From assembly GCA_039589315.1 (NCBI GenBank), contig JBDHHQ010000004.1:1-64000 (forward strand): a stretch of 64,000 nt of DNA, in the 5' to 3' direction. The notes under the pieces are model-generated. The model was not told the DNA's origin. It made no database searches and worked only from the letters and a program-made list of their open reading frames with translations. The translations under genes were made by a program, and so were the position numbers. The stretch is from Gemmatimonadota bacterium (GTDB taxonomy: Bacteria > Gemmatimonadota > Gemmatimonadetes > Longimicrobiales > Gaopeijiaceae). Shown here one piece after another: positions 4,834-30,884 of the stretch (the stretch's first letter is position 1; each line of letters begins with the position of its first letter).

Positions 4834-5472
4834 GTCGCCCCTCTTCTCAGCGCTGCTCGATCCACGGGTTCTCCACATACCACACGGCGTCGCTCCGGTA
4901 CGGCCCGCTGAGGCCCCGAAGGACGCTCCCCCATGTCAGACGCCGGCCTTCGAGGAACGAGTCGAGTCGTACGCGCCCGGCGTCGGTCATGGTGGCCGAT
5001 GCGCATGGCACCATGGAATCTGTGAACGGGGGGATTGAACGGGCTTTGCGACGCCCGGAGGCACGGTAGGCCGGGACCCGGCTGCGGACAAGGAGCGAGC
5101 CAAGGCTCCCGAGCCTATCCCTGAGTCGGTGTTCCACCAATCCCTGCCATACCGAGCCGTGGACCAACGCGTCCGGCGCGGGTACACCGGGCTGAGCCAG
5201 CTCGGTCTTTCGCGCCCAGCCCACGATCCCACCCTACCTCCTTGCATCGGCCCACCCGGACCGCCCACCTTGGCCCTGGAATCCGTCACGGGTCCGAGCG
5301 CGCTGGGGGCGCCGCCGCCCGCCCACCCAGGGTCCCGCTCTCGCAGAGGCCCTTTGATCCGGTGACCCGCTACATCGCCTGCCGGCTGATCCCGCTGCTC
5401 TTTGGAGTCTGGCGGTTGGGTGGATCCCACCATCATCACGTCCAGTGGCGCTTCCGAGGTGTCGGTCCGCCC

Positions 5473-13634: not shown

Positions 13635-16067
13635 ATGCGTCCCACTCTGCTGGTTACCGGTCTTCTGGCGTGCATCTCCTGCGACGCGCCCGAGCCCGTC
13701 TCCCTTCGTCTCGTCGATCAGTTCGCGAACGCGAGCGTCGAAGGCAGCCCCCCAGCGGTCCAGCCCGAGCGCACCGAGTGGCGCTTCGACGGCGAGGGAA
13801 CGACCTCGGCACCCCACGAGCACACCGCGACGCTCGGCTGGAGAGCCATGAACGACATCGCCGGTCTTGCCGTCCGGGAAGGCATGCTCGTCGGCACCAC
13901 CGGCACGCTCCCCGTGCTCCACGCGGTGCGCCCGGACGACCTGGACGAGAACGACCTCCTCCACGCCATCGAGATCCGCATGCGGGTGTCCGAAGGCACG
14001 GAGATCGGTGTCACGTTCAACGGGGCGGAGGAGCCGGACGCCGAGTGGGCCCGGGATCGCATCGACCAGCTCCGAAGCCAGGTCCGCGCACCGCTGATCG
14101 CGGAGCTGACCCCGGGCGACGAGTTCCTGACCTACACGCTCAGGGAGGCCGGGTCCACCTTCCGCATCGGCAGCATGCGCAACATCCTCATCGAGCCGAC
14201 CGATGCCGAGGGAGCGCACTTCGAGATCGAGTCGATCCGCATCATCCCGGTGAAGGAGCACCTCGCGTCGGTGCCCTCGGGCCCGGGCTGGCACGGCTTG
14301 GCCGAGGTGTATTACGAGACCATCGTGAGCCGCTCGCCCGAGCGCGTAGTGTGGCAGCTCGATCTTCCATCCCGGCCTTGGCTGGATCTGGCCTACGGCA
14401 CGATCGAGGACGGTCCCGTGACGTTCGAGGTCACCATCGGCACCGGCGGCGCGGAGACGTCCGTTCTGAAGCGTACCGTCACCACGCCGCGCCGCTGGGA
14501 GACGTCCCGCCTCGATCTCTCCGCCTACGCGGCGAGCCCCGTGACCCTCACGCTGGCGCTCGACGCCGACAGCGACGGCCTGCTCGGGTACTGGGGCTCA
14601 CCCGTGATCCGGAACAGTGGTGCCATGCCGGAGCTGTCCGATGGCTCCGAGGACCGGGCAACGCTGCTCGACGGCGGCTCGGAGCGCCCGCAAGCCGTCA
14701 TCCTGTTCCTTGCGGACGCGCTGCGCCGCGACCACCTGCCTATGTACGGCTACGAGCGCAACACGACTCCGGTGCTGTCCAGGCTGGCGGACGAGGGGGT
14801 CGTGTTCCAGGACAACATCTCGCAGGGATCGTGGACCAAGGTCTCGGTCTCGTCGATCCTCACCTCCCTTTATCCCACCACGCATGGGATCACGGCGATC
14901 CCCGACCGCCTGCCGTCGTCCGCCACGACCCTCTCGGAGGCGTTTCGTGAGGCCGGGTTTGCCACGTGGCAATCCTCGTCGGTGGTGTTCTCGGGTAAGC
15001 TGACCAACCTGCACCAGGGCGTGGACGTTCTGCATGAGCGCGCATCGGTCGACGACCTGGGCCACAGCTCCAGCAAGACAGCGCGAACGTTCACGGACCG
15101 GTTCCTGGAGTGGCTCGGTGACCACCACGACATCCCCTTCTTCGCGTTCGTGCACGTGTTCGATCCGCACAGCCCCTTCGAGCCGTATCCGCCCTACGAC
15201 ACCGTGTGGGCATCGGCCGACGCAACCGCCGCTCACGAGGCGGACTGGGAGACGCTCCGAGACGCCGACCTACCCGCGAGCTTCTTGCCGACACAGAAGG
15301 AGCTGGACCAGGTCGGCATCGACGCCGACCGGTTCACGGCCCACGAAATCGACTGGTACGACGCCTCCATCCTCGCGATGGACGTCGAGATCGGCCGCAT
15401 CATGCAGCGTCTGGAGGAGCTCGGGCTCGCCGGCAAGACGTTGTTCGCGTTCATCAGCGACCACGGCGAGGAGTTCCTGGAGCACGGCAACCAATTCCAC
15501 GGGACCAGCACGTATGGCGAGATGATGAACGTCCCGCTGATGCTCTGGTGGCCCGGCGTGCTACCGGCCGGCACCGTCGTGCAGCAGACCACCGAATCGC
15601 TGGACCTGATGCCGACACTGCTCGAGTTGAGCGGCATCACACCTCCCGAGGGGGCGCAGGGCCAGAGCCTGATCCCACTCGTCGTCGACCCGGACGCGGT
15701 CTCCGACTTCGGAGCGATCCGTCGTGCGGCCTTCAGCGAGCGCGTGCGGCTGCCGGATCTGGAAATGCCGGAAGAGGACGACGTCGATTCGTTCGCGATC
15801 GTCCTGGACGGGTGGAAGCTCGTGCAGATCGTCGATCCCCCGGACGGGCGGTCGGAATACGAGCTCTACGACCACCAGAAAGACCCGCTGAACATGCACG
15901 ACGTCGCCGGCGACAACCTGGAGATCGTCGAGCGGCTCGCCCGCGAGCTCGAGACCTGGCGGGAATACGCGCTTGCCTCCCGTCCACCGCCCGACACCGA
16001 AGCGATCGAGGGCCTCGGCGCCGATGAGATCGCCCGGCTCCGGAGCCTGGGCTACATTAACGACTGA
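13635..16067 (+). CDS. Sulfatase-like hydrolase/transferase lipoprotein (Thr-type), paralog B
   Basis: RBS gggagg. MRPTLLVTGLLACISC lipobox-like. ADALRRDHL, SQGSWTKVSVSSILTS, FDPHSPF, SDHGEEF.EHG, ELYDHQKDP. Ends DEIARLRSLGYIND. Confidence 0.9.
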   Translation: MRPTLLVTGLLACISCDAPEPVSLRLVDQFANASVEGSPPAVQPERTEWRFDGEGTTSAPHEHTATLGWRAMNDIAGLAVREGMLVGTTGTLPVLHAVRPDDLDENDLLHAIEIRMRVSEGTEIGVTFNGAEEPDAEWARDRIDQLRSQVRAPLIAELTPGDEFLTYTLREAGSTFRIGSMRNILIEPTDAEGAHFEIESIRIIPVKEHLASVPSGPGWHGLAEVYYETIVSRSPERVVWQLDLPSRPWLDLAYGTIEDGPVTFEVTIGTGGAETSVLKRTVTTPRRWETSRLDLSAYAASPVTLTLALDADSDGLLGYWGSPVIRNSGAMPELSDGSEDRATLLDGGSERPQAVILFLADALRRDHLPMYGYERNTTPVLSRLADEGVVFQDNISQGSWTKVSVSSILTSLYPTTHGITAIPDRLPSSATTLSEAFREAGFATWQSSSVVFSGKLTNLHQGVDVLHERASVDDLGHSSSKTARTFTDRFLEWLGDHHDIPFFAFVHVFDPHSPFEPYPPYDTVWASADATAAHEADWETLRDADLPASFLPTQKELDQVGIDADRFTAHEIDWYDASILAMDVEIGRIMQRLEELGLAGKTLFAFISDHGEEFLEHGNQFHGTSTYGEMMNVPLMLWWPGVLPAGTVVQQTTESLDLMPTLLELSGITPPEGAQGQSLIPLVVDPDAVSDFGAIRRAAFSERVRLPDLEMPEEDDVDSFAIVLDGWKLVQIVDPPDGRSEYELYDHQKDPLNMHDVAGDNLEIVERLARELETWREYALASRPPPDTEAIEGLGADEIARLRSLGYIND

Positions 16068-16123: not shown

Positions 16124-16738
16124 TCAGCCGCGGTTGCGGTGGAGGCTCGGGTCGACCACGGCCGCCATGGCTTCCCAGTCGAGGTCCCGTCCGAGAAAGC
16201 CCCCGACGCGCCTGGCCTGTTCGACCCCGTCCTCGAGGACGTCATGGTACCGGACGTGGAGGGCGTCGAAGCAGGGGCGATGAGCGAGCATGCTCCTGGT
16301 GCGCGCGAGGTGATCGATGAACAGCTTCCGCATGCGCACGTCGTCCGTCTCCGTGGCCTCGCCTCGGTGGTCGAGCATCTTCGTCTGGGACAGCAGGACC
16401 TCGTCCAGGTCCCGCTGCATGAAGATGACCTTGTAGTTGAGCGTTGCAGGAAGATGCCGGATCAGAAACGCGATGATCTTGACCGCCCGCCCGCGTGCCT
16501 CGGCCAACCACGCCCTGTCCAGGTCATGCTCGAGCTGCTTGACGCGCTCCAGCTCGTAGTAGCCGAGAGGATTGCTCTCGTCCGCCGTGCGAAGACCGTC
16601 CGTCACGATCTCGACACCGCCCGCCTCCAGCATCTGCATCATCATGGAGGTGCCGGAGCGAGGCAGGCCGGACACCACGACGACCGGCCGCCCGTATCGG
16701 GCTCGGCGTATGGCGCGGCGTACGGTAGCCAAGGGCAT
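16124..16738 (-). CDS. PAPS-dependent sulfotransferase family protein (cytoplasmic)
   Basis: 5'-PSB loop VVVVSGLPRSGTSMMMQML, NPLGYYE, 3'-PB-like KVIFMQRDLDEVLLS, VRYHDVL, VDPSLHRNR. No signal peptide. Confidence 0.88.
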   Translation of the reverse strand: MPLATVRRAIRRARYGRPVVVVSGLPRSGTSMMMQMLEAGGVEIVTDGLRTADESNPLGYYELERVKQLEHDLDRAWLAEARGRAVKIIAFLIRHLPATLNYKVIFMQRDLDEVLLSQTKMLDHRGEATETDDVRMRKLFIDHLARTRSMLAHRPCFDALHVRYHDVLEDGVEQARRVGGFLGRDLDWEAMAAVVDPSLHRNRG

Positions 16739-16759
16739 CGGTCAGAGGGCGGGCTGAGC

Positions 16760-19075
16760 GTGGCCAGTCGTCATGAAAGGAAGAATAACGCGGGGCGCGC
16801 CCTTTCCGCAGGGTTCCTGCGCTCGCGCCTCGCGTGCCGGGGGAGCGTTTCCGTCAAACTCACCGCTGTGCTGTTGGCCGTGGTCCTGCTGGCGGTGTCG
16901 CCCACCCCCGCCGCCGCATACGTGGGGCCCGGCGCCGGGTTCGTGTTCGTCACGTCGTTCCTGGTCATCCTCGTCACCGGCCTTGTCGCCTTCGTCTCAC
17001 TCCTGCTGTGGCCCTTCCGTGCGCTCTGGCGGTTGCTGCGACGGGCCACCCGGCCCAGACCGCGCATCAAGAGACTCGTCATCGTCGGCTTCGACGGCCA
17101 GGATCCGCGGCTGACGGACCGATTCATGGCCGAGGGCAAGCTCCCGAACTTCAAACGTCTGGCCGAGGACGGATGCTATCATCCGCTCCAGTCCACGTTC
17201 CCGTCGGTCTCACCGGTCGCCTGGTCGTCGTTCAGCACGGGGACGCACCCCGCGAAGCACAACATCTACGACTTCCTGGACCGGGATACGCGGACCTACC
17301 TGCCCGTGCTGTCGTCGACCCGCATCGCCGGTCCCGACCGGGTGCTAAGGATCGGCCGGTACCGCGTGCCGTTGGGCAAGCCGGATCTCCGGCTGCTCCG
17401 CAAGTCCCGCCCGTTCTGGTCGATCCTTGGGCAGCACCAGATCTGGAGCACCGTCCTGCGCGTCCCGATCACCTTCCCGCCCGACCGCTTCTACGGCGCC
17501 CAGCTCAGCGCCATGTGCGTGCCCGACCTGCTCGGCACCCAGGGCACCTTCACGCTGGTCACCACGCGGGATTCGCGGGAGGGGTTCAAGGAGGGCGGAA
17601 GGCGAGTGCGCCTGAGCCGGGAGAACGGGCGCCTGGAAGCTCGGCTGGAAGGTCCCGAGAACGAGCTGGTCGAGGGGGCCGGACCGATGTCGGTCCCGCT
17701 GGTGATCACCCCGAACGGCGACGGCAAGACCGCCCTCGTCGAGGTCGACGGCGCTTCTTACGACCTGCAGGTCGGTGAGCTGACGGACTGGGTGGACCTG
17801 AGCTTCCGGGCCGCACCGGGTATCAAGGTGCGCGGGATCTGCCGCATGATGCTCACGGAGACGGGCGACCATGTCTCGCTGTACGTCACCCCGATCAACC
17901 TGGATCCCGAACGGCCGGCCATGCCGATCTCGCATCCGTCCTATTACGCGATCTACCTGGCCAAGAAGCTGGGCAAGTACGCGACTCTGGGGCTCGCGGA
18001 AGACACCTGGGCGCTCAACGAAGGCGTGATCGACGACGCCACCTTCCTTCGCCAGACCTACGACATCGATCAGGAGCGCGAGGACATGTTCTTCGCGGCT
18101 CTGGACACGCTCCGGAAGGGCACGGTCGTGTGCGTGTTCGACGCGACCGACCGCATCCAGCACATGTTCTGGCGTTACCTGGAGGACGGGCATCCGGCAG
18201 CGCGCATGGGGGCCCCGGGCGCCGCTTCGGGTGCGGGGTCGGCCCGGGCGTCGGGCGGAAACGACGGTCCGGAGGCCAGCCACCGCGTTGGGGACGGAGG
18301 GCCGAAGGCCGACGACGCCGGCTCGAACGGCCGCCCCGGGGGAAAGCACGCCGACGCGATCCAAGAGCTGTACATCCACAACGACCAGATGGTGGGCCGA
18401 ATCCGCGAGCGGCTCCGGGCCGGTGACGTCCTGATGGTGCTGTCCGATCACGGCTTCACGTCGTTCCGGCGGGGCGTCAACCTGAACGCCTGGCTGCACG
18501 ATAACGGCTACCTGACGTTGAAGGACGGCGCGGACGGGCGGACGGAGTGGCTGCGCGAGGTGGATTGGTCCAGAACGCGAGCGTATGCCCTGGGCCTCAC
18601 GGGGCTCTACCTCAACATCGACGGCAGAGAAGCCCAGGGCACGGTTCGGCCCGGCGACGAGGCCCGGGAGCTCAAGGCCGCGCTCGTGGAGCGGCTGAGC
18701 GGCCTGCCCGACGACGACGTGGGCCACGTGGCGATCCGCGAGGCGTTCGACACGTCCGCGCTCTACGGGGGGGGACCGTACCTGCGCAACGCCCCCGACC
18801 TGCTGATCGGCTACGCCGAGGGCTACCGGGCATCGTGGGACGGCGCGACCGGCGTCGTCCACGGCCCGGTCATCGAGGACAACGTCAAGCCATGGAGCGG
18901 CGACCACTGCGTGGATCCGCGCGTCGTTCCGGGCGTGTTCTTCAGCGACCGGCCAATCGACCGCGACGATCCCGCCCTCATCGACATCGCCCCGACCGCT
19001 CTGTGGCTGTTCGGGCTCAGGCCACCGGCGCACATGGACGGGAAGCTCCTGTTCGACGAGGGAGCAGCCGAGTGA
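16760..19075 (+). CDS. Alkaline phosphatase family / type I phosphodiesterase-nucleotide pyrophosphatase-like protein 1 (membrane-anchored)
   Basis: LVIVGFDGQD, STFPSVSPVAWSSFSTG, HNIYDF, TDRIQHMFWR, VLSDHGF, DWSRTRAYALG, WSGDH, DIAPT. N-terminus PAAA-YVGPGAG followed by a TM helix. Start uncertain (GTG 16760 or 16868). Confidence 0.87.
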   Translation: MASRHERKNNAGRALSAGFLRSRLACRGSVSVKLTAVLLAVVLLAVSPTPAAAYVGPGAGFVFVTSFLVILVTGLVAFVSLLLWPFRALWRLLRRATRPRPRIKRLVIVGFDGQDPRLTDRFMAEGKLPNFKRLAEDGCYHPLQSTFPSVSPVAWSSFSTGTHPAKHNIYDFLDRDTRTYLPVLSSTRIAGPDRVLRIGRYRVPLGKPDLRLLRKSRPFWSILGQHQIWSTVLRVPITFPPDRFYGAQLSAMCVPDLLGTQGTFTLVTTRDSREGFKEGGRRVRLSRENGRLEARLEGPENELVEGAGPMSVPLVITPNGDGKTALVEVDGASYDLQVGELTDWVDLSFRAAPGIKVRGICRMMLTETGDHVSLYVTPINLDPERPAMPISHPSYYAIYLAKKLGKYATLGLAEDTWALNEGVIDDATFLRQTYDIDQEREDMFFAALDTLRKGTVVCVFDATDRIQHMFWRYLEDGHPAARMGAPGAASGAGSARASGGNDGPEASHRVGDGGPKADDAGSNGRPGGKHADAIQELYIHNDQMVGRIRERLRAGDVLMVLSDHGFTSFRRGVNLNAWLHDNGYLTLKDGADGRTEWLREVDWSRTRAYALGLTGLYLNIDGREAQGTVRPGDEARELKAALVERLSGLPDDDVGHVAIREAFDTSALYGGGPYLRNAPDLLIGYAEGYRASWDGATGVVHGPVIEDNVKPWSGDHCVDPRVVPGVFFSDRPIDRDDPALIDIAPTALWLFGLRPPAHMDGKLLFDEGAAE

Positions 19076-21249
19076 AGGGCTCCCGAGCGCGGATGAACCC
19101 CTGTGCCCGCGTCGGGCCGATCCGGGACAGACGTGCGCGATCGAACGCTCGTGTCAGCAGCGGTGCGTTCCAGCGCATTGGGCCCAGGCTGGTGCCTGCC
19201 CGTGGCGCGGCGCGCGTGCCGCGGACTACCCGCGCAGTCCTGACAGCCTTCACCCTCGTCGGCGCCGTCCTGATCACAGCGTGCGCCGACCCCGAGCCCA
19301 TAGACACGACGGTGATCGTCCTCGGCTTCGACGGAATGGATTACGAGCTGACCCGCCGTCTCATGGCGGAAGGCCGGCTCCCGAATCTCGCGAGAATGGC
19401 CGAATCCGGGAGCTTCTCCCCGCTGGAGACCTCGATTCCGCCGCAGAGCCCGGTCGCGTGGTCGGACTTCATCACCGGATTGGACGCCGGAGGCCACGGC
19501 ATCTTCGACTTCCTTCACCGGGATCCAGCCACGATGGTGCCGTACCTGTCCACGACGATCACAGAGCCTCCCGGACGTACCCTCGAGATCGGCCGCTGGC
19601 AGATACCGCTAGGGGGCGGCGATGTCACGCTGATGCGGCAGGGCACTCCGTTCTGGGAGCTCCTCGAAGAGCGAGGCATCCCGACGACCATCGTTCGGAT
19701 GCCGGCCAACTTCCCACCTTCCGGCACGGCGGACCGGGAGCTCAGCGGGATGGGCACACCCGACATCCTGGGCGGCTACGGCACGTACACCTTGTTCACC
19801 ACTTCGCCCGAGCGATTCGCCAGCGCGACGGGTGGCGACGTGGTGCGGGCAGATGTCCGGCGCGGTGTCTTCCGTGGCAGCCTGAGGGGGCCTCCGAACC
19901 CGCTCTTGATCGAGCCCGAGGATCTCCGCTCCGAGTTCACCGCCTACCTGGACCCGGTCCGCCCCGTCGTGAAGCTCGTGATCGGCGACGAAGAGATCGT
20001 CCTGCAGGAGGGGGAGTGGAGCGATTGGGTTTCGGTCGAGTATCCCCTTCCCCTCTTCCAGAAGCTCGTGGGCACCGGCCGATTCTACCTCAAGCAGGTC
20101 CGGCCCGAGCTCCAGCTCTACGCCACCCCCGTCAACATCGACCCCGCCGATCCGGCGATGCCCATCTCGACGCCTCCGGACTTCGCGTCCGAGCTGGCGG
20201 CGGCGGGCGGGCGGTACTACACGCAAGGCTTTCCGGAGGACACCAACGCCCGAGCCGACGGCGTGTTCGACGAGGTGGACTTCCTGGCCCAGGCCCGGCT
20301 GGCGGCCGGCGAGATCGAGCAGCAGTACCGCTACCTGCTGGGAGGCTTCGACGGCGGATTGCTGTTCAACTATTTCGGATTCATCGACCAGGTGTCGCAC
20401 ATGATGTGGCGCGCCACCGATCCCGAGCACCCCGCCTACGACGCGGAGCGCGACGGACCCCACGCGGGGGTGATCGACGAGCTGTATGTGAAGGCGGACG
20501 AGATCGTCGGCGAGACGCTGGACCGCCTGGAAGTGACCGGAGGCACCCTGATCGTCATGTCCGACCACGGCTTCACGTCGTGGCGCCGCGGATTCAGCCT
20601 GAACGCCTGGCTCGAGCAGCACGGCTACCTCGCCGTTCGTGACCCGGGGCGTCGCGACATCGACTTCCTGCTGAACGTGGACTGGTCGCGAACGCAGGCG
20701 TACGGCTTGGGGCTCAGCGGGCTGTACCTCAACGTGGAGGGCCGGGAGGCCAACGGCATCGTGTCGGCCACGGAGGCCGGCATCGTGCTCGACGAGATCA
20801 CCCGAGGACTGCTGAGAGAGGTCGATCCCGCAACGGGAGAGCCGGCGGTCACGCGTGTGTACGGCCGAGACGCGACATACGAGGACGCCGGTCAGCTCGC
20901 GATCGGCCCGGACCTGGTCATCGGCTTCGCGAAGGGCGTGCGTAGCTCCGACGCGTCGGCGGCCGGCGAGGTCCCGGCCGAGGTGTTCGCCGACAATACG
21001 GGCGCCTGGAGCGGCGACCACATCATGGATCACGAGACCGTCCCCGGCGTGCTTCTGTCGAGCAGGCCGCTACGGACGGCAGCGCCGTCGCTGAGGGGGT
21101 TGGCGGCGGCAGTGCTGGCCGAGTTCGAGGTCGAGGGATTCCCCGGCTCCGCCCCGCCAGCCGACGTCGCAGCCAGGGGACCGGGGTCGAATCATCAACC
21201 GCTGGATCGGGGTCCACCGCGGGCAGTGGTATCGGGACCCAATCGCTAG
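19072..21249 (+). CDS. Alkaline phosphatase family / phosphodiesterase-like protein 2 (putative lipoprotein)
   Basis: GTG overlaps the upstream TGA (GTGA). VLITAC lipobox-like, VIVLGFDGMD, PPQSPVAWSDFITG, HGIFDF, DQVSHMMWR, MSDHGF, DWSRTQAYGLG, WSGDH. Clear paralog of the preceding gene. Confidence 0.87.
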   Translation: MKGSRARMNPCARVGPIRDRRARSNARVSSGAFQRIGPRLVPARGAARVPRTTRAVLTAFTLVGAVLITACADPEPIDTTVIVLGFDGMDYELTRRLMAEGRLPNLARMAESGSFSPLETSIPPQSPVAWSDFITGLDAGGHGIFDFLHRDPATMVPYLSTTITEPPGRTLEIGRWQIPLGGGDVTLMRQGTPFWELLEERGIPTTIVRMPANFPPSGTADRELSGMGTPDILGGYGTYTLFTTSPERFASATGGDVVRADVRRGVFRGSLRGPPNPLLIEPEDLRSEFTAYLDPVRPVVKLVIGDEEIVLQEGEWSDWVSVEYPLPLFQKLVGTGRFYLKQVRPELQLYATPVNIDPADPAMPISTPPDFASELAAAGGRYYTQGFPEDTNARADGVFDEVDFLAQARLAAGEIEQQYRYLLGGFDGGLLFNYFGFIDQVSHMMWRATDPEHPAYDAERDGPHAGVIDELYVKADEIVGETLDRLEVTGGTLIVMSDHGFTSWRRGFSLNAWLEQHGYLAVRDPGRRDIDFLLNVDWSRTQAYGLGLSGLYLNVEGREANGIVSATEAGIVLDEITRGLLREVDPATGEPAVTRVYGRDATYEDAGQLAIGPDLVIGFAKGVRSSDASAAGEVPAEVFADNTGAWSGDHIMDHETVPGVLLSSRPLRTAAPSLRGLAAAVLAEFEVEGFPGSAPPADVAARGPGSNHQPLDRGPPRAVVSGPNR

Positions 21250-21271
21250 CGGTACGAAAGGAGGAGCTGCC

Positions 21272-21463
21272 GTGTTCGGTTCGAAGGTGAAGCTGGACAA
21301 GAGCCTGTTGAAGCGCGTCGAGAAGTTCTCCCGCATCGCGGGATACTCGTCGCCGGCGGAGTTCATCACCCACGCCGTCGAACGGGAGCTGGCACTCCTC
21401 GAGGACGCCGAGTCCGAGGAGGAGATCCGCAAGCGGCTGCAAGGCCTCGGATACATCTCTTGA
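21272..21463 (+). CDS. Small ribbon-helix-helix (CopG/MetJ-like) protein with C-terminal EEEIRKRLQGLGYIS motif
   Basis: RBS aaggaggag 6 nt before GTG. Beta-alpha-alpha pattern KVKLDKSLLKRVEKFSRIAGYSSPAEFITHAVEREL. Stop overlaps the next start (TTGA). Confidence 0.8.
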   Translation: MFGSKVKLDKSLLKRVEKFSRIAGYSSPAEFITHAVERELALLEDAESEEEIRKRLQGLGYIS

Positions 21464-22299
21464 TCTGGACCCTCAACCGGGCCCTGGGCGGCTTCTTCAA
21501 CCTGCTGCTCTACCCGTTCCGGGGCTTTCCGGCCATCGTGGGCCTGACCGTGATCTCGCTGGTGGTCAGCGTGGCGATGCTGATCGGTTTCAAAGCCACG
21601 TCCGACCAGGAGGCGCTCGCCGAGGTCAAACGGCACATCCACGCGGGTGTGTTCGAGATCCGTCTGTTCAAGGACGACTTCCGCGCGATCCTCTCGGCCC
21701 AGATCGGAATCCTCCGCCACACCTTCACGTATTTCCGGCTCTCCATGGTTCCGATGTTGTGGATGCTGGTGCCGATCGTGATCGTGGTCATCCAACTCCA
21801 GTTCCAGTACGGGTATGAGGGGCTCGAGTCCGGCGAGAGCGCGCTCGTGACCGCGACGTTCACGGAAGAAGGCGCGGGCGCCGTGGGCGATGCCGGAGCC
21901 GATATCTCCCTGGAAGCCCCCGCAGGCGTGCGGGTCGAGACCCCGCTGCTGTGGATCCCCTCGCTGCGGGAAGCGGGCTGGAGGATCGTCGCCGACGAGC
22001 CCGGCGAGTACGAGCTGGTGCTGCGGGTTGGCGAGACCAATCTCACCAAGAGCGTGCGCGTGGCCGACGGCGTGCTGATCAGGTCTCCTGTTCGCCCGTC
22101 GAGGGGCCTTGTCGATCAGCTCGTGTGGCCGGCGGAAGCACCGGTGCCGAGCACATCACCGGTCAGACGGATCGAGCTCTCCTATGCCGATGCCGAGGTC
22201 AGTCTGTTCGGATGGGGCATGCACTGGCTCATCGCCTTCTTCATCCTGACCATGGTCTTCGCCTTCGCGCTGCAGCGGCCGATGAACGTCAAGCTGTAG
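21460..22299 (+). CDS. 3-TM membrane protein resembling DUF106/EMC3/TMCO1 (Oxa1 superfamily) with an extracytoplasmic beta-rich insert
   Basis: Amphipathic N-helix, TM1 (IVGLTVISLVVSVAMLIGF), SDQEALAEVKRHI helical hairpin, TM2 (SMVPMLWMLVPIVIVV), ~130 aa soluble domain, TM3 (WLIAFFILTMVFAFALQRPMNV). The ORF is solid; the family call is by pattern only. Confidence 0.7.
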   Translation: MIWTLNRALGGFFNLLLYPFRGFPAIVGLTVISLVVSVAMLIGFKATSDQEALAEVKRHIHAGVFEIRLFKDDFRAILSAQIGILRHTFTYFRLSMVPMLWMLVPIVIVVIQLQFQYGYEGLESGESALVTATFTEEGAGAVGDAGADISLEAPAGVRVETPLLWIPSLREAGWRIVADEPGEYELVLRVGETNLTKSVRVADGVLIRSPVRPSRGLVDQLVWPAEAPVPSTSPVRRIELSYADAEVSLFGWGMHWLIAFFILTMVFAFALQRPMNVKL

Positions 22300-22314: not shown

Positions 22315-24885
22315 TCAGTGGATGTAGCCCAACGACCTGAGGGTCTGGAGCTGTTCCGGCGTCAGGGGCAGGCCCTCTCCGGAGCGGGTGAATCTCTGAG
22401 CCAACGCCTGGTGCGCCTCCCACTGCGCCTCGAGGAACGCGGTGTACTGCTCCATCAGGTCGGGCCGTTCCTCGTGCAGGCTGTGTGAGAGATTCGGGTC
22501 GGTCCACAGATCGAAGAGAAGCAATCGAGCAGCTCGGCCGCCTTCTTCTTGTGGGAATGGGTCCCGGTTTACCAGGAGCGACGCACCCCAGCGGCCGTCG
22601 ACCACACCGATGCGCCCGAAGAGCGTGTCCGATTTGAACGAGGCGTAGAACTCGTCGAAGATGACGGGACGCGGCTCCCAACCCCCTTGCCCGAGCAGCA
22701 GTGGCGCCAGGGACTGGCCTTGCGTGATCTCGGGAATGGGCAATCCAGCCAGGTCGACGATGGTCGGGACCACGTCGATCATCGACACCGGCTGGCTGAA
22801 TCGCTGTCCGGCAGCAATGCGGGCAGGCCAGACCACAATCAGCGGGATGCGGGATTCCCACGGGCTGAAGATCGCCTGATCCTCCCAGAAGGGGGCCGAC
22901 ATCGAGGCGAGGCTGGGAAGGCCAGCATTGTCGTGGCTGTGATCCGCCGCGACGATGAAGATCGTGTTCTCCCACTCGCCAGCCGCTTTGATCCGGTCGA
23001 CCAGCCGACCGATCTGGTAGTCGTTGTGGGCCATCCCCTCGTCGTAGAGTCCCTGGGCCACGCTGATGTACTCCAGTGCGTCGATATCCGCCCCCGCGAG
23101 GGCGGCCAACCAGGGCTCGTCCCAGGACCCCACTTCTTCCATCCGTGCTTGCCAAGCGGAGAGGCGCTGTGGTGCATCGACGTTGCCGAAGAGACCGGCG
23201 AAGGGCGCCGCCGGGTGCCAAGGCTGGTGCACGTCCACGCTCTGGAAATGAGCCCAGTACGGCTGTGCGGGGTACGCCTCCCGCCATTGCCAGAAGGCTT
23301 CGTGCAGCCACACCGATGATGCGGAGTGGCTGCTGCGCGGCCAGCAGGTGAATCCGTCCCAGGTATCGCGCAGGACGTCCACACCTCGATCGAGGGTGCT
23401 CATGGTGCCGGCGTACGGATTCGCTGTGAAGACGGCGGTCTGGTACCCGCCCCGGTGCATGTGCTCCGCCATGGTCACGGCCTGCTCCGGAAGCGGATCG
23501 GTACCGGTGAGGTATCCACCGAGCACACTGTGATGCAGCGAGGTCATGAACGAGGGCGTGGATGTCCTGGTCCAGGTGGAGTTGCTGTAGGCCTGTTCGA
23601 ACACCGCTCCCTCGGACGCGAGGCGCACGAGGTTGGGTGTCGTGTGGCGGTTGTAGCCATAGACGCTCATGAACTGCGCCGCGGCCCCATCGATGACGTA
23701 GAACACGACATTGGGCCGGTCCGCCCGGCTCGAGCCGCTCACGACTGGAGCCCCCCAGAGTGCAACGGTGCCGGGTGTCTCGGCGTCCGCCTGCAGCGCC
23801 AGCGTGACTTCCTGACCCGCGTATGTCGCCAGATCGACGGAGCGTTGAATCCACGCAGCCCGGTCGGCCACGGTCTCCTCCAGCAGGCCGTGTTCTTCTC
23901 CACGTGCTGCGGCCACCGTGACCTTGAAGTCGACCGGCGCGTCGTTACGAACCACAGCGAGACCGACGTCGAGGCGCCCACCGGGTGGCACGTGCACCGT
24001 ATAGGCGACCCGCCCGGGCGCGTGCGTGAACATCGTGCGCCGGCTCTCGTTGCTTCCGTCGGCCACAGTCATCACACCGAGTGGATCGCTCACGAAGGCT
24101 GCCGACGTGGAGACGGCCGTCACCGAGAGAATGTCGACATTGCCCGGTTCGTAGGTCTGGAACATCACCCCGACTCTACAGCACACGTCGCTCGCCATTC
24201 TGGTGGAGCCACTCCTGGCCCAGAGCTGTTCGAGGGGAAAAGGCAGCAGATAGCCCTGCACCGAACCATCCGCGATGATCGGCGTCGGTTCGCTGATCTC
24301 TTGAAACAACCCGGTGACGCCGTGGCGGGACTGGCTGTCATCGAGGCTGGCAGAGGAGACCGACACGACTCCCGCGCTCTCGGTGCGGGCCCGAACCATC
24401 AGGTGGGCCGGCCGCAGACGCAGCAGGCTGGGAGCGTCGATGTAGATGCCCGCACCGAACAGGCTCTCGTTCTCGATCGTGGGCACGCCGACCTCGGTCA
24501 CGCGGATGCGTAGCGCATCGTCTGCCCGTGTCGCTTCCCGCAGGTTGGGCGGCGCGATGAGGGAAAACGCCTTCCAATCGGGCTGAGGCTCGTCGAAGCG
24601 CCAGACGATGGTTTCGGGGCCGGCGACAGGCGGCTCGGATCCTTCGATCCTCGCGACGTCCAGATGCTCCTCGAGGTGGAGAGGCTTTTCGGCCGTCAGC
24701 ACGGCGGAGTCGGAGGGTGAGCCACGGCAACCCGCCAGGGCCAAGCTCGACACGAGGGCTGAAAGGCAAAGACCGGGTGCACGACCACGACTCGTGGCAC
24801 CTCCTCCGATTGGCGCGGCGCGGGTGGGCCGGGCCGGTCCTCGGGCATGTTGCCCCGACCATTCTTGGGAGCGCGGGCCGCTCAC
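22315..24885 (-). CDS. Sulfatase-like hydrolase/transferase lipoprotein (Thr-type), paralog C
   Basis: LALAGC lipobox. RPNVVFYVIDG, SNSTWTRTSTPSFMTS, VDVHQ, ADHS, LFDLWTDP. Ends EQLQTLRSLGYIH. GTG start overlaps the upstream stop. Confidence 0.88.
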   Translation of the reverse strand: MSGPRSQEWSGQHARGPARPTRAAPIGGGATSRGRAPGLCLSALVSSLALAGCRGSPSDSAVLTAEKPLHLEEHLDVARIEGSEPPVAGPETIVWRFDEPQPDWKAFSLIAPPNLREATRADDALRIRVTEVGVPTIENESLFGAGIYIDAPSLLRLRPAHLMVRARTESAGVVSVSSASLDDSQSRHGVTGLFQEISEPTPIIADGSVQGYLLPFPLEQLWARSGSTRMASDVCCRVGVMFQTYEPGNVDILSVTAVSTSAAFVSDPLGVMTVADGSNESRRTMFTHAPGRVAYTVHVPPGGRLDVGLAVVRNDAPVDFKVTVAAARGEEHGLLEETVADRAAWIQRSVDLATYAGQEVTLALQADAETPGTVALWGAPVVSGSSRADRPNVVFYVIDGAAAQFMSVYGYNRHTTPNLVRLASEGAVFEQAYSNSTWTRTSTPSFMTSLHHSVLGGYLTGTDPLPEQAVTMAEHMHRGGYQTAVFTANPYAGTMSTLDRGVDVLRDTWDGFTCWPRSSHSASSVWLHEAFWQWREAYPAQPYWAHFQSVDVHQPWHPAAPFAGLFGNVDAPQRLSAWQARMEEVGSWDEPWLAALAGADIDALEYISVAQGLYDEGMAHNDYQIGRLVDRIKAAGEWENTIFIVAADHSHDNAGLPSLASMSAPFWEDQAIFSPWESRIPLIVVWPARIAAGQRFSQPVSMIDVVPTIVDLAGLPIPEITQGQSLAPLLLGQGGWEPRPVIFDEFYASFKSDTLFGRIGVVDGRWGASLLVNRDPFPQEEGGRAARLLLFDLWTDPNLSHSLHEERPDLMEQYTAFLEAQWEAHQALAQRFTRSGEGLPLTPEQLQTLRSLGYIH

Positions 24886-27314
24886 CGGATGTACCCCAGC
24901 GACCGGAGGGTCCGCAACTGCTCCTCGGTCAATGCCGGGTTGTCGCCCGTCTGCGTGAACCGCTCGGCCAATCGAAGGTGTTGGGCCAACCGAGCCTCCA
25001 GGAATGCCGTGTACTCCTTGACAAGAGCCGGCCGCTCCTCATGCAGGCTTCGCAGCGCGTGCGGATCGCTCCACACGTCGTAGAGCAGCAGGGGCGGGGT
25101 CACGTCCGGCACACCATCGCGGAAGCGTGAACCCTCTGGTGGATAGTTACGATGCCCTCGAAGGTGGATCCAACCGTCAGGGCGCGGCGGTCCGACGTAG
25201 AGAGAGGCACCCCATCGCCCGTCGATCACCTCGATCTGGCCCAGCAGCTCGTCGTCTTCGAAGCGGAACTCGTCGAAGACCACGGGGCTCGGCTCCCACC
25301 CGTCCCGTCCCAGCAGGAGCGGTGCGAGAGATCGTCCCTGGGCGTATTCGGGGACCGGGAGGCCCAGGAGATCCAGAACCGTGGGGAGCACGTCGATCAT
25401 CGAGACGGGATCCATGAAACGCAGGCCCCCCGCGATCCGGCCGGGCCACACGAACATCAGGGGCACCCGGCTCTGGAAGGAGCTGAGCATCGCGCCTTCC
25501 CAGATGTCGGGGAGGGGGTCGGTCAGGCCCAGTCCGAAGTGCGTCGTACCGGCTTGGTGCCCATGATCCGACGCGATGATCAGAAGGGTATTCTCCCACT
25601 CGCCCTCTGCCTTCAGGCGACCCACGAACTGGCCGATGCGAGCGTCCTGCTGCGCCATGGTCTGGTCGTACGCCGCTCTCGCCAGGTCGAAGTAGGCGTA
25701 GCGATCCACACCCGCCGCCTCGAAGGCATCGGAATAGGGCGTTCCGACCCATCCCTGGCGGTCGAGGGCCGCGTCCCACGTCTCGAGTCTCTCCAGGTAT
25801 TCCGGGCTCACGTAGAGGCCCTCGAACGATGGGCCCATGTAGTCCGGGCCATGCACGTCCGTGGTCTGGAAGTGGACCCAATACGGCTCCCCCGGATAGG
25901 CCTCGCGCCAGCGCCAGAACTGCGCTTGGAGCTCGGCGGACGAGTTCGGGTCATAGGCCTCGCGCAGCACGTCCGAGCCTCGTCCGAGTCCAAGCGCCGT
26001 GCCAGCATTGGCATTGGTGGTGAACAGACCGGTTTGATAGCCGACGGCGTGCAGGTGCTCGGCCGCCGTCAGGGCTTCGTCGGGCAGGATCCTCGGACGT
26101 CTAACTCCGCCGATGGCGCTCGTGTGCAGCGACGTGAGAAAGGAAGGGGTGGAGCTGCCGGTCCATGACGAGTTGCTGTAGGCGTACTCGAAGACGGCGC
26201 CCTCCTCTGCCAATCGCTCCAGATTCGGGGTGGTCCGGCGGTTGTACCGGTACAGGCTCATGTGCTCGGGAGATGCGCCGTCGATCACGTAGAAGACCAC
26301 GTTGGGCCGACCCGAGTCGACCCGACCACTTACGGTCGGAGCCGCCCATAGACCCACTGTTCCGGGCGCTGCATCTACCGCCAGTGTCAGGGCGACCGTC
26401 TGCCCCGCCATGTGCGAGAGATCCACGCCGAGCTGGGCCCATTCGGTCGTCGCATCGTGCGTCTCGGTGGCGAGGCGCTGGACCCCACCCGCCTCGTCGG
26501 TTGCCGTGACCTCGAAGGTCACTGGCGTGTCTTCTCGGAGCACCCCCAACCCGACATCGAGGCGCCCCCCGTCGGGAACCTTCACACGGTATTCGAGGCT
26601 CGCTGGGGCGTGGACGAAGATGGAGCGTCGATGCTCGATGCCGCGCGCCACGGACCGCACTCCTGCGGGCTCGGTGGCGAACTCCGCGTCGATCGGTATC
26701 GCCCGGACGGACAGGACGTCTACGGTGGCAGTGCTATCCGCTCTGAGATGAACACCCAGCTCGGTCCACGGACTGCTCGGGACTCCGCGGATCTGCGCGA
26801 CTCGAAGCAGATAGGTGTGTGTGTCTCCGTCGGCTTGGAGGGGCACCGGGACGCTCCAGCCCTGCAACGGTCGTTCGTCTGTCGTGGTCAGGTTCATGCC
26901 GAGGGTTACTCGCATCCTCCGGCCGGTTGCCCGTAGCCGAAGCGCGATCGTCCCCCAGTCCGCCCGGTTCCATTCCGGAAGCCGCACGTTCAGGTCGACC
27001 GACCCGAATTCTTCTTCCCGAGCCTCGCGGTCGAAGGTGACTCGCAGGCCCTCCTCGGTCGCGGAAACTGAAGGGGACCCCGACGACGAGACGAGCCTCC
27101 AATCGGATTGGAGCCCCTCCGCCGCCCACTCCACGGGCTCGGTGACGCCGGCGGACAGATCGGAGCCTGTGAGTGTTGCGGCGCCGAGATGATCCTCGAG
27201 ATGCAGAGGCCCGTCGGCCGTGAGCATCTGGGATCCCGACTGCGAGTCGCAGCCCACGACGATTGCACTGAGCAGGCTGGCTGTGACGATTCCGGAACGG
27301 TGGCGGACGAACAT
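24882..27314 (-). CDS. Sulfatase-like hydrolase/transferase lipoprotein (Thr-type), paralog D
   Basis: AIVVGC lipobox. RPNVVFYVIDG, SNSSWTGSSTPSFLTS, TDVHG, SDHG, LYDVWSDP. Ends EEQLRTLRSLGYIR. Confidence 0.88.
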   Translation of the reverse strand: MFVRHRSGIVTASLLSAIVVGCDSQSGSQMLTADGPLHLEDHLGAATLTGSDLSAGVTEPVEWAAEGLQSDWRLVSSSGSPSVSATEEGLRVTFDREAREEEFGSVDLNVRLPEWNRADWGTIALRLRATGRRMRVTLGMNLTTTDERPLQGWSVPVPLQADGDTHTYLLRVAQIRGVPSSPWTELGVHLRADSTATVDVLSVRAIPIDAEFATEPAGVRSVARGIEHRRSIFVHAPASLEYRVKVPDGGRLDVGLGVLREDTPVTFEVTATDEAGGVQRLATETHDATTEWAQLGVDLSHMAGQTVALTLAVDAAPGTVGLWAAPTVSGRVDSGRPNVVFYVIDGASPEHMSLYRYNRRTTPNLERLAEEGAVFEYAYSNSSWTGSSTPSFLTSLHTSAIGGVRRPRILPDEALTAAEHLHAVGYQTGLFTTNANAGTALGLGRGSDVLREAYDPNSSAELQAQFWRWREAYPGEPYWVHFQTTDVHGPDYMGPSFEGLYVSPEYLERLETWDAALDRQGWVGTPYSDAFEAAGVDRYAYFDLARAAYDQTMAQQDARIGQFVGRLKAEGEWENTLLIIASDHGHQAGTTHFGLGLTDPLPDIWEGAMLSSFQSRVPLMFVWPGRIAGGLRFMDPVSMIDVLPTVLDLLGLPVPEYAQGRSLAPLLLGRDGWEPSPVVFDEFRFEDDELLGQIEVIDGRWGASLYVGPPRPDGWIHLRGHRNYPPEGSRFRDGVPDVTPPLLLYDVWSDPHALRSLHEERPALVKEYTAFLEARLAQHLRLAERFTQTGDNPALTEEQLRTLRSLGYIR

Positions 27315-27767: not shown

Positions 27768-28118
27768 ATGGCCGAGATTCCGGAAGGCATGAGCACCCTC
27801 GAGTACCACGTTCTGCTGTCCATGGCCTCAGGGCCCCGGTACGGCTACGCGATCAAGGACGCCGTAGCGGCCGAGTCCGCCGGAACGCTCCAGCCACGAG
27901 CCGGCACCCTCTACCGTGTGCTGGCCCGCCTCATGACCCACGGTTGGGTGGCTGAAGTCCAAACCGGCCAGGACGACCCGCCGCACCCCGGGCTGACCCG
28001 CAAGTACTACGGCCTGACGGCCACCGGCCGCGCCGCCCTCGCCGTGGAAGCCCGGCGGTTGCGCGAAGCCGCGGCGTTGGCCGAGGAACGTCTCGGGCTG
28101 GTGGAGAAGACGGGTTGA
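27768..28118 (+). CDS. PadR family transcriptional regulator
   Basis: EYHVLLSMASGPRYGYAIKDAV, AGTLYRVLARL, RKYYGLTATGRAAL. Confidence 0.93.
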   Translation: MAEIPEGMSTLEYHVLLSMASGPRYGYAIKDAVAAESAGTLQPRAGTLYRVLARLMTHGWVAEVQTGQDDPPHPGLTRKYYGLTATGRAALAVEARRLREAAALAEERLGLVEKTG

Positions 28119-30784: not shown

Positions 30785-30801
30785 CGCGGGGAACGGGAGG
30801 A

Positions 30802-30836
30802 GGTCGGCGTGGGGGGCTTTCCCCCCCACGCCGACC
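30802..30836. terminator. Perfect 15-bp-stem hairpin between convergent ADOP genes (probable bidirectional terminator)
   Basis: ggtcggcgtgggggg-ctttc-ccccccacgccgacc. Confidence 0.7.
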
Positions 30837-30884
30837 GCGGGCAGCTGGCCTGATGGCGACCGCCCATGTACGACCCCGCTGGGG

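Follow-up and report, generated by a model that had tools for sequence, protein, structure and literature searches.

A conserved four-gene core with a divergent sulfotransferase in a Gemmatimonadota genome as a candidate relay for activated sulfate

The window analysed here, a 64,000-nucleotide stretch of a Gemmatimonadota contig (JBDHHQ010000004.1), carries the operon PDE1-PDE2-small protein-TM, transcribed divergently from the sulfotransferase gene ST (Table 1). All of these open reading frames, described in an earlier note on this DNA, are indeed present in the sequence, as is the TTGA overlap of the small-protein gene with TM (from 21460). The GTGA overlap at 19072-19075 is present as well, but its GTG is merely one possible start of PDE2, 70 codons ahead of the lipobox Cys. 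PDE1 probably starts at the GTG at 16760, 21 bp from the ST start. As also noted before, four Thr-type sulfatase-fold lipoproteins (PF00884) flank the gene set, two on each side.

Table 1 Coordinates of the genes and motifs at the locus.
Feature	Position	Strand	Description
SulA	11037..13508	-	Lipoprotein, N-terminal beta-sandwich region and sulfatase-fold domain; Thr nucleophile 12288-12290; LGY tail 11046-11054
SulB	13635..16067	+	Lipoprotein built as SulA; Thr 14835-14837; LGY 16047-16055
ST	16124..16738	-	PAPS-dependent sulfotransferase, cytoplasmic (PF13469); 5'-PSB loop 16646-16669
PDE1	16760..19075	+	Signal peptide, Y-V-GPGAG, TM helix, basic stretch, AlkP domain (PF01663); Ser nucleophile 17210-17212
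PDE1 Y-x-GPGAG and TM helix	16919..17011	+	Mature N-terminus; motif itself 16919-16939; Tyr invariant
PDE2	19072..21249	+	PDE1 paralog, predicted exported; lipobox Cys 19282-19284; Ser nucleophile 19447-19449; start codon uncertain
Small RHH-like protein	21272..21463	+	LGY tail at C-terminus, 21446-21454; Tyr61
TM	21460..22299	+	Three-helix DUF106/TMCO1-type Oxa1-superfamily protein
SulC	22315..24885	-	Thr-type lipoprotein with LGY tail; Thr 23569-23571; LGY 22324-22332; start uncertain
SulD	24882..27314	-	Thr-type lipoprotein with LGY tail; Thr 26160-26162; LGY 24891-24899; start inferred

Co-conservation, the check named in the earlier note, was borne out across Gemmatimonadota and Acidobacteriota. 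PDE1, PDE2, the small protein and TM occurred together, with their order kept, in all 56 assessable GTDB loci, 47 of which also carried ST. In metagenome loci seeded with the small protein, TM was the next gene downstream in 68 of 69 and PDE2 the next gene upstream in 53 of 63; PDE2 stood apart from the operon in 9 of the 63, and PDE1 in 4 genomes. ST, TM and full-length PDE1 were found in the identical 6 of 301 Gemmatimonadota genomes. TM was present in 74 of 251 Acidobacteriota genomes; 51 had TM and ST, 23 had TM with no ST found at E<=1e-20, 11 had ST with no TM match and 166 had neither, in a sample that includes incomplete genomes and possibly STs that are parts of fusions. These co-occurrence counts are overstated because kin are not independent. 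The conserved unit is PDE1/PDE2/small protein/TM; the five-gene set proposed earlier stands for these four, but not for ST, in view of the 23 of 74 genomes. Flanking by lipoproteins likewise holds here but is not general, with close lipoproteins adjoining the core in merely 14 of 56 GTDB loci. One genome (G008) has the core and no SulA match at 1e-30, and two others (G093 and G264) have SulA fragments and no core found. It is very unlikely that chance brought together hydrolases that act independently and a transcription factor of the CopG type in a sulfur locus, as the database names (CopG/Arc/MetJ regulator for the small protein, phosphodiesterases, sulfatases) would have it. Against this stand the tight co-occurrence, the gene fusions described below, the gap of only 21 bp separating the ST start from that of the divergent PDE1, a Thr nucleophile that excludes formylglycine chemistry, and conservation of the small protein concentrated in helix 2 and the tail, not in the DNA-reading strand.

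PDE1 and PDE2 both match PF01663; an alignment of 683 columns shows 38% identity between them. Their nucleophile, given earlier as Thr/Ser, is Ser and not Thr, in a di-metal NPP/PhnA-type site of which all metal ligands are kept in both enzymes. Such NPP-type sites are established to favour phosphoryl chemistry, so this feature counts against a sulfuryl relay. The two had also been regarded as periplasmic, which fits the prediction for PDE2 but not that for PDE1. In 60 of 60 PDE1 sequences a signal is followed by Y-x-GPGAG and a helix, after which come on average 7.8 K/R versus 0.1 D/E, and in nine natural ST-PDE1 fusions a two-helix hairpin leaves both partners on one side; on these grounds a cytoplasmic orientation is predicted for the AlkP domain of PDE1. 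PDE2 is predicted to be exported and to face outside: 70 of 93 homologs have a lipobox-like Cys and 7 of 93 a Tat motif (2 have both), and the other 18, judged by eye, mostly have a hydrophobic signal. With PDE1 facing the cytoplasm and PDE2 exported, the sister enzymes would straddle the inner membrane. The tyrosine of the periplasmic Y-x-GPGAG N-terminus, overlooked earlier, is invariant, and this segment with its helix is a candidate for either a periplasmic carrier or a partner helix of the Oxa1-like protein.

ST matches Pfam Sulfotransfer_3 (E 5.6e-13), and a search of the protein for a hydrophobic segment found none. Its weak likeness to tyrosylprotein sulfotransferases (E 6e-4) is carried by the PAPS loop, and phenol SULTs score alike. 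Among 120 listed long ST homologs, 94 have an AlkP domain, and 80 of these also have LxxLGY. Such AlkP-TPR-sulfotransferase fusions ('predicted AlkP superfamily phosphohydrolase/phosphomutase') combine, in a single chain, an ST of this family with an AlkP domain and an LxxLGY helix; unlike PDE1 they are without its type of Y-x-GPG N-terminus. We found no characterisation of them in the literature searched, and they would represent the inside half-reaction only. These gene fusions support a tie between ST, LGY and AlkP.

The small protein has 63 residues, a strong Shine-Dalgarno and the C-terminal end RLQGLGYIS. LxxLGY ends only 11 of 80,507 stop-to-stop frames of the whole genome (nine sulfatase-like paralogs, the small protein and one unrelated frame), so LGY tails are not due to chance. 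Tails of this kind are also found on APS kinases, on AlkP-LGY-TPR-ST fusions and on sulfatase-like proteins of the non-formylglycine type, and APS kinase-RHH-LGY fusions match the small protein itself (hhalign 95.8%, E 7.5e-9). Judged from its distribution, the tail tracks non-formylglycine enzymes: it is on 0 of 7 CxPxR sulfatases of the source genome, on 21 of 23 enzymes examined in four ST-less core genomes, and on none in 5 core-less genomes. An APS kinase without the added tail was seen in 3 of 10 ST-less genomes examined, and a P-loop-degenerate APS kinase (L230) retains the tail, as either a tag or a carrier would allow. The small protein itself is soluble. It lacks an export signal and has no simple way to display its tail outside; we regard it as a candidate cytoplasmic sulfuryl carrier.

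It is possible, though doubtful, that no tyrosine intermediate exists and that the LGY helices act non-covalently, as docking tags or active-site lids, to assemble a sulfation complex with the same outcome. The motif does resemble the helix cap that APS kinase natively has at its C-terminus, the SulB tail (pLDDT ~83 in its AF2 model) could pack on its own body, and the available text of PMC5870055 describes sulfatase-fold C-terminal tails as often mediating oligomers and lining active sites, with no covalent chemistry. However, the tail tyrosine is almost never Phe, whereas Phe and Leu are common in the structural cap: all 132 small proteins, all 16 kinase tails and all 81 fusion motifs keep it, and sulfatase-like tails have 78 Y versus 1 F, against GY 15, GF 7 and GL 3 among 39 look-alike caps.

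TM has three hydrophobic segments. The earlier Oxa1-like assignment was confirmed by a profile match to MJ0480 (E 6.8e-11) and by Pfam EMC3_TMCO1 matches in 12 of 128 members, and by homology TM is a DUF106/TMCO1-type Oxa1 protein, a relative of archaeal-type insertases. Like archaeal DUF106/Ylp1 (MJ0480), TMCO1 and EMC3, it has three TM helices, the first of which is followed by a helical hairpin in the cytoplasm; unlike them, it is bacterial, has an Ig-like periplasmic insert separating TM2 from TM3, lies in a putative sulfation operon and is additional to the YidC of the genome, which its profile does not match. DUF106 is described as archaeal in the accessible parts of PMC8887752 and 10.1101/2020.12.20.422553, and the latter also states that three-helix archaeal and eukaryotic Oxa1 proteins require a partner on helix H5. 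This need suits the docking-tag alternative, in which TM would be a dedicated insertase or scaffold for the short PDE1 hairpin, the PDE1 helix would take an EMC6-like partner role, and the crossing species, a lipid or small molecule, would receive its sulfate directly from ST; 10 PDE1 N-termini gave no EMC6-like Pfam match, a weak test. Insertases also scramble lipids (10.1101/2023.09.01.555937).

SulA-SulD each have a lipobox-like Cys, an LRSLGYI end and Thr at the nucleophile position (WTKPS, WTKVS, WTRTS and WTGSS). Since Thr is not convertible to formylglycine (PMC5066984), formylglycine chemistry is excluded. The SulB model is nearest class I sulfatase folds (Z 38.6-31, versus LtaS 26.6 and EptA 25.6), and SulA is likely a terminal sulfotransferase. 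LtaS/EptA/BcsG-type transferases share the Thr/Ser nucleophile, AlkP fold and extracytoplasmic group transfer; they draw phospho-groups from phospholipid through a multi-TM domain of their own, whereas the lipoproteins here have no TM domains and are modelled as closer to class I sulfatases. AlkP 'sulfatases' acting as sulfotransferases are described in Halobacterium salinarum, where Agl30/Agl31 (VNG1056C/VNG1057C) are needed, and in a heterologous host sufficient, for glycan sulfation; we liken them by this published description, and they differ in being archaeal, in acting on a dolichol-linked glycan and in that the available text makes no statement on PAPS or a donor (PMC11980604).

The cargo, previously put as sulfuryl or phosphoryl, is likely sulfate, as PAPS-related genes (Sat/CysC/CysD/CysQ) occur in 30 of 80 loci and gene fusions agree; phosphoryl is less likely. 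In the source genome, Sat/CysC and CysQ lie amid nucleotide-sugar genes. From gene content, conservation, motifs, fusions and Oxa1 homology, with predicted sides for PDE1 and PDE2 and inferred steps, we propose with a probability of about 0.5 that the operon relays PAPS-derived sulfate from cytoplasm to periplasm through covalent Tyr- and Ser-sulfate intermediates, for surface sulfation by exported enzymes. If true, this would be a new way of exporting activated sulfate to sulfate the cell surface.

It is quite unlikely that PAPS itself is exported through TM, as by a Golgi PAPS transporter, for direct use by the Thr-type lipoproteins, with PDE1/PDE2 as nucleotide pyrophosphatases clearing PAP/APS/PAPS on each side or moving a nucleotidyl group. 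Such export would suit the complete NPP-type metal ligands of both PDEs, the adjacent PAPS genes and the persistence of the core without ST in 23 of 74 genomes, but it accounts for neither the invariant small protein nor the AlkP-LGY-TPR-ST fusions nor the invariant PDE1 N-terminal Tyr, PAP is already removed by CysQ in 25 of 80 loci, and we know of no Oxa1 groove that passes trianionic nucleotides. That the available text names no donor for Agl30/31 (PMC11980604) also accords with export. An inward relay, in which periplasmic enzymes strip environmental sulfate esters and pass the group to PAP, regenerating PAPS without ATP, is extremely unlikely. Nine exported sulfatase-fold paralogs scattered among unrelated genes of the source genome, and the modelled SulB fold nearest carbohydrate sulfatases, would accord with it, and aryl-sulfate exchange is reversible; transfer from alkyl to aryl sulfate is nevertheless uphill, PAPS-synthesis genes and PAP-destroying CysQ are adjacent, and no PF01507 match, and hence no PAPS reductase as sink, was found in the source genome.

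In the proposed outward relay, Sat/CysC would make PAPS, CysQ would remove PAP and ST would put sulfate on Tyr61 in the LGY helix of the small protein; in ST-less genomes, the loading of LGY tails, some fused to APS kinase, would fall to a short AlkP enzyme in the cytoplasm or to a transferase that escaped detection. The aryl sulfate would load the Ser of PDE1, which would pass the group to a membrane-embedded carrier crossing via the groove of TM, a lipid being our first guess and the PDE1 N-terminal tyrosine our second. PDE2 would run the reverse exchange onto the LGY tyrosine of the lipoproteins, whence the group would move to their own Thr and on to a hydroxyl of a surface glycan picked by the N-terminal domains. 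This acceptor is a guess, because no glycan-synthesis genes recur beside the core. A single core would serve all nine LGY lipoproteins of the source genome.

Among known systems, ASST, the periplasmic aryl-sulfate sulfotransferase, resembles the proposed relay in taking a sulfuryl group from an aryl-sulfate donor without PAPS through a covalent enzyme intermediate, and differs in having no membrane relay, a His intermediate and a fold unrelated to the AlkP-fold enzymes here. PAPS-independent sulfuryl transfer by ASST appears in titles cited in PMC11625862. For Dlt (DltB/X/D) and PatAB MBOAT-SGNH systems, the available text of PMC12148441 proposes a tyrosine shuttle from cytoplasmic donor to outside transferase, in which an invariant Tyr within a short motif at the C-terminus is followed by a Ser/Thr intermediate, as in our proposed relay. 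Our system differs in having no MBOAT/SGNH protein, a likely sulfuryl cargo, LxxLGY instead of FxYxxF, paralogous AlkP enzymes predicted to straddle the membrane and an Oxa1-like membrane part. The analogy to DltX drawn earlier is accordingly loose: the C-terminal-motif tyrosine is shared, but the small protein is soluble, whereas DltX, in the same text, is a membrane microprotein with its tail outside (PMC12148441).

The invariant unit of this system is a set of four genes, encoding two AlkP-fold paralogs (PDE1 and PDE2), a 63-residue RHH-like small protein ending in the motif LxxLGY (the LGY tail) and a three-helix Oxa1-like membrane protein (TM); a cytoplasmic PAPS sulfotransferase (ST) divergent from PDE1 is a common but not universal companion. 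The system is real and widespread, and apparently undescribed, and its mechanism is offered here as a testable proposal. All the ORFs, overlaps and motifs claimed for the locus in an earlier note are present in the sequence. Contig C4 (JBDHHQ010000004.1) begins with the window and belongs to a 6.67-Mb genome, 95% complete, in which ST, the small protein and TM are each single-copy; its closest relatives are labelled Longimicrobiales/Gemmatimonadota. The ST and PDE1 starts are separated by only 21 bp, and a promoter and terminator scan stayed at chance level.

A GTDB scan seeded with TM returned 238 relatives sharing one pattern, and the best 80 were kept. Their labels are mainly Acidobacteriota and Gemmatimonadota, besides single Myxococcota and Gammaproteobacteria labels and two actinobacterial ones that may be binning errors. 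Of these best 80 loci, 56 extend 6.5 kb or more beyond TM on its upstream side; all 56 contain PDE1, PDE2 and the small protein, 47 contain ST and 14 have close lipoproteins. The co-conservation that the earlier note proposed to test holds for the core and, in most loci, for ST, and close lipoproteins accompany the core in a minority. In a metagenome scan seeded with the small protein (best 80 of 568 relatives), TM lies directly downstream of the small gene in 68/69 loci and PDE2 upstream in 53/63, and PDE1 directly precedes the small gene in nine of the ten loci where PDE2 does not. TM, ST and full-length PDE1 are found in the same 6 of 301 Gemmatimonadota genomes, a TM match in a further genome, G133 (E 1.4e-4, in a 773-aa frame), having been excluded beforehand as likely spurious; 25 others carry different PDE types. 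Matches below 1e-90 to the SulA-type lipoprotein occur in 7/301, five of them core genomes. The system is common, with TM in 74 of 251 sampled Acidobacteriota genomes (ST in 62, both in 51) and 2,093 TM clusters at 50% identity. These genomes are kin, and the conservation counts are therefore not independent. Distance correlation, 0.72 for PDE1-PDE2 and 0.27-0.39 for other core pairs, lacked a housekeeping control and was not used as evidence. A search of viral contigs with profile A3 returned no relative.

The idea that ST and a short PDE replace each other was ruled out, since ST is encoded elsewhere in 10/10 genomes without an adjacent copy. Distant ST-less genomes keep PDE1, PDE2, the small gene and TM together, or have PDE1 elsewhere (four cases). 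One locus has a transposase-like gene that separates the small gene from TM. Other system types (loci L117-L130) occur in about 25 Gemmatimonadota genomes that lack the core: one type joins a long signal-less PDE with an LGY-ended short PDE or a multi-TM Thr-type sulfatase, such long-PDE sets sometimes lie beside Sat/CysC, and single exported PDEs (Tat or Sec) also occur. The window genome has a third PDE paralog on contig C145, long, signal-less and split by an apparent frameshift, which adjoins a multi-TM Thr-type sulfatase-like protein without LGY; neither TM nor small gene is nearby.

PDE1 had been taken for a periplasmic enzyme, a view that its predicted topology reverses. All 60 full-length PDE1 sequences of the first locus set show an AxA-like signal end, the motif Y-x-GPGAG, a hydrophobic helix and a basic stretch averaging 7.8 K/R and 0.1 D/E. 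The positive-inside rule assigns the side of membrane domains, and under it the K/R-rich stretch after the helix predicts a catalytic domain facing the cytoplasm. The Y-x-GPGAG start recurs in 105/106 sequences of a wider set, the remaining one being an alignment offset. In nine natural ST-PDE1 fusions (one partial), ST precedes the signal helix and the cleavage-like site is kept, an arrangement compatible with the two enzymes sharing a side of the membrane. An Atlas search with the PDE1 N-terminus gave no usable match, and a Pfam scan of ten PDE1 N-termini, a weak test, gave nothing consistent and no EMC6-like match. Among 93 PDE2 sequences, 70 have a lipobox-like Cys, 7 a Tat motif and 2 both; most of the other 18 have, by eye, an ordinary signal or a Cys missed by the pattern used.

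The paralogs are 38% identical and share their di-metal ligands and Ser nucleophile. The NPP/PhnA-type motif set (Asp; Ser/Thr nucleophile; D-x3-H; DH; C-terminal His) is complete in both, and the metal-ligand columns are invariant across 61 PDE1 and 59 PDE2, with Ser as nucleophile in 58 PDE1 (Thr in 3) and in all 59 PDE2. PhnA is the nearest PDB sequence to the PDEs (E 3e-4), and the PDE1 sequence alone found no match in the PDB. Neither paralog bears an LGY tail, except for a single PDE2 (locus L089) that lacks the lipobox Cys and has an LGY-like motif at its end in cis.

TM is, by homology and modelled fold, a DUF106/TMCO1-type protein of the Oxa1 superfamily with a putative insertase or scramblase role, and the earlier description of it as Oxa1-like therefore stands. 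Its family profile A1 matches MJ0480 (5c8j) at E 6.8e-11, with TM1-hairpin-TM2 aligned and TM3 weakly so. PF01956 (EMC3_TMCO1) is matched by 12/128 members at E<=0.05 (best 4.8e-8), and the window protein alone did not match it. Hydropathy and the AF2 model (pLDDT 97.1) agree on a three-TM core with a cytoplasmic helical hairpin, the model running from an amphipathic helix through TM1, the hairpin into TM2 and a beta-sandwich to TM3; Foldseek gave Ig-like matches for the insert. The first row of a structure search (VIA) was 7tut_8, chain 8 of the multipass translocon, which we take to be TMCO1 (Z 8.8, rmsd 3.4, 136 aligned), and the EMC chain 6ww7_C (Z 7.4) and YidC 3wo7_A (Z 7.3) followed in lower rows, all modest Z values for helical proteins. 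The genome also encodes an ordinary YidC, which the TM profile does not match. The three-helix Oxa1 form is described as one of archaea and eukaryotes that requires a partner at helix H5 (PMC8887752; 10.1101/2020.12.20.422553), and insertases are reported to scramble lipids (10.1101/2023.09.01.555937).

The LGY tail is carried by small RHH proteins, APS kinases, short cytoplasmic PDEs and exported sulfatase-like proteins. Its Tyr is present in 132/132 small proteins, 16/16 kinase tails and 81/81 fusion motifs. In sulfatase-like proteins the residue after LxxLG is Y in 78 and F in 1, and 14 other LxxLG matches likely lie elsewhere in the chains. A look-alike native APS-kinase cap (n=39) reads GY in 15, GF in 7 and GL in 3, the remainder being unparsed or other. 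The tail accompanies non-formylglycine enzymes: it is found on none of the seven CxPxR sulfatases of the window genome, on 52/60 non-formylglycine sulfatase-like proteins in fetched loci (a set biased to these loci) and, in four ST-less core genomes, on 21 of the 23 sulfatase-like proteins examined among 32 matches. Genome G008 has it on 0/6 formylglycine and 1/1 other sulfatase-like proteins (7/29 examined). Of five complete genomes that lack the core, four have no PF00884 match and the fifth has only formylglycine enzymes, without LGY. A DNA-pattern count of the motif was too noisy and was not used. The small protein itself has no Pfam match above cut-off, and its profile found nothing in the PDB below E 0.069; the nearest Pfam-bearing cluster in the Atlas, at 0.86, has RHH_1 on 27% of its members, and database names say CopG.

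Some loci vary these parts. One APS kinase homolog, which precedes the core and has a short PDE on either side, retains its LGY tail with a degenerate P-loop. In four loci a second, distinct RHH-LGY small protein precedes Sat and CysC-LGY, after which come a short PDE and the core. Elsewhere the small protein is duplicated, one copy being without the tail.

The four flanking lipoproteins, SulA-SulD, match PF00884 (E 1e-30 to 4e-49), with its sulfatase fold and metal site. From their sequences they are not formylglycine sulfatases: the nucleophile position is Thr, the Arg is missing and the C/S-x-P-x-R pattern, taken from PMC5066984, is absent. The same source states that Thr is not convertible to formylglycine, counts Thr in 30/59 PF00884 seed sequences and calls the PF00884 profile a source of false annotation (PMC5066984). 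The SulB model, with a tail pLDDT of about 83, superposes on 6hr5_A (VIA; Z 38.6, rmsd 2.6, 354 aligned), nearer to class I sulfatases than to LtaS or EptA. The N-terminal domains had no significant match among PDB sequences (best E 0.36), and acceptor binding is our guess for them. Five more LGY-tailed lipoproteins are encoded one each at separate sites on other contigs. A Ser substitution in a sulfatase reportedly traps the sulfated intermediate, and a sulfo-Thr trapped at the nucleophile would suit a transferase. Genetic precedent for AlkP-fold "sulfatases" that sulfate glycans is given in PMC11980604.

ST has the sequence of a PAPS-dependent sulfotransferase. It exceeds the cut-offs for PF13469 and PF00685, and what we take to be the 5'-PSB loop (SGLPRSGTS) and the 3'-PB Arg/Ser (R109, S117) are invariant in 63 sequences; it resembles TPST2 over residues 7-39 only (E 6e-4) and phenol SULT1 over residues 98-200 (E 1e-3). 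Sat, CysC, CysD or CysQ is present in 30/80 kept loci and 21/41 full 20-kb loci. In the window genome, Sat/CysC and CysQ lie on contig C19 with a CitMHS/TrkA-C permease, interspersed with UDP-sugar dehydrogenases and epimerases, and a search of this genome for PF01507 gave no match. All ten ST-less genomes tested have an APS kinase, with an RHH-like segment plus LGY in six, an LGY tail in one and no tail in three; one such RHH-like extension matches the small-protein profile (95.8%). Among the 120 long ST homologs listed, of 1,859, 94 contain an AlkP domain, followed in 80 of these by an LxxLGY helix. Rubellicoccus peritrichatus (P0429) and Methylomagnum ishizawai (P0462) are among the named sources of AlkP-LGY-TPR-ST fusions. 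ST, LGY and AlkP have thus been joined in one chain many times, which favours a sulfuryl over a phosphoryl group, both of which the earlier note had allowed. Four other proteins (P0411, P0420, P0433 and P0483) have the ST family fused at the C-terminus of chains of ~650 residues; two are named ADP-heptose:LPS heptosyltransferase, a hint of glycan acceptors for the family in other settings.

In the relay that we propose, ST would transfer the sulfuryl group from PAPS to the tail Tyr of the small protein, and the Ser of PDE1 would take it from this Tyr-sulfate. A carrier crossing via TM would bring it to the Ser of PDE2, from which it would pass to the Tyr of a lipoprotein tail, then to the Thr and finally to a surface hydroxyl. 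Two paralogs that lack tails, one at each membrane face and each paired with a tailed protein there, could catalyse the same exchange, forward on one side and backward on the other. NPP-type sites attack PAPS at phosphorus, and an aryl sulfate would therefore suit the AlkP site better than PAPS. That the core serves outward sulfation is likely, a judgement that pools the best model with its two leading rivals; a covalent route through tyrosine is an even bet. A lipid is marginally favoured as membrane carrier over Tyr1, the Tyr of the PDE1 Y-x-GPGAG motif. The weakest points of the relay include the di-metal site of the PDEs and the ST-less genomes. Taken together, we propose, with a probability of about 0.4, an undescribed, widespread route of surface sulfation without PAPS export, in which Tyr-O-sulfate on modular LGY tails would be swapped by two paralogous Ser enzymes on opposite faces and cross by a repurposed Oxa1 groove of archaeal type, perhaps carried by the N-terminal Tyr of PDE1 as it flips, and the many LGY-tailed Thr/Ser "sulfatases" in databases would be sulfotransferases.

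Such a relay would work in like manner to Dlt/PatAB, as PMC12148441 presents them. However, Dlt/Pat systems have an MBOAT and SGNH pair and an FxYxxF motif; here the motif is different and the operon proteins gave no MBOAT or SGNH match in Pfam/NCBIfam, so the relay is not a member, and the Dlt likeness drawn earlier would extend to the manner of working but not to kinship. The literature searched, covered in part, yielded no description of this gene set or of the LGY motif. If true, the proposal would explain bacterial sulfation beyond the cytoplasm, where PAPS is absent, give an Oxa1-family protein a job beyond protein insertion, reassign many proteins labelled sulfatases and suggest a candidate donor for the archaeal Agl30/31 case. 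Should the covalent model fail, a DUF106-type protein that is found in bacteria and bound to one operon would still be apparently undescribed, no account of one having been found in the literature consulted.

Genes of the locus in order, and locations of further features
Feature	Sequence	Coordinates	Strand
SulA	window		-
SulB	window		+
ST	window		-
PDE1	window		+
PDE2	window		+
Small protein	window		+
TM	window		+
SulC	window		-
SulD	window		-
DUF5916 protein	window	5242-8253	
Exported C-x-x-x-R sulfatase	window	8907-10919	
PadR regulator, ABC permeases	window	27768-33491	
Sulfatase-like protein and long PDE paralog	L014 (G000:C145)	1099-5139	
PDE2 with LGY-like end	L089	7035-9734	
Transposase-like gene	L059	8811-9851	
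APS kinase homolog with LGY tail	L230	1520-2125	
Second RHH-LGY small protein	L059	1063-1353	
Second RHH-LGY small protein	L080	1811-2122	
Second RHH-LGY small protein	L082	2231-2482	
Second RHH-LGY small protein	L274	250-528	
Duplicated small protein	L175	7385-7642	

Three further features were seen in the window. The exported sulfatase with the C-x-x-x-R catalytic motif has an additional C-terminal domain and no LGY tail, and is probably unconnected with the relay. The DUF5916 protein has a CBM9-like N-terminal domain. The PadR regulator is followed by ADOP-type ABC permeases and is a frequent neighbour in Gemmatimonadota; similar PadR/ABC-permease-like pairs also flank two other LGY lipoprotein genes.
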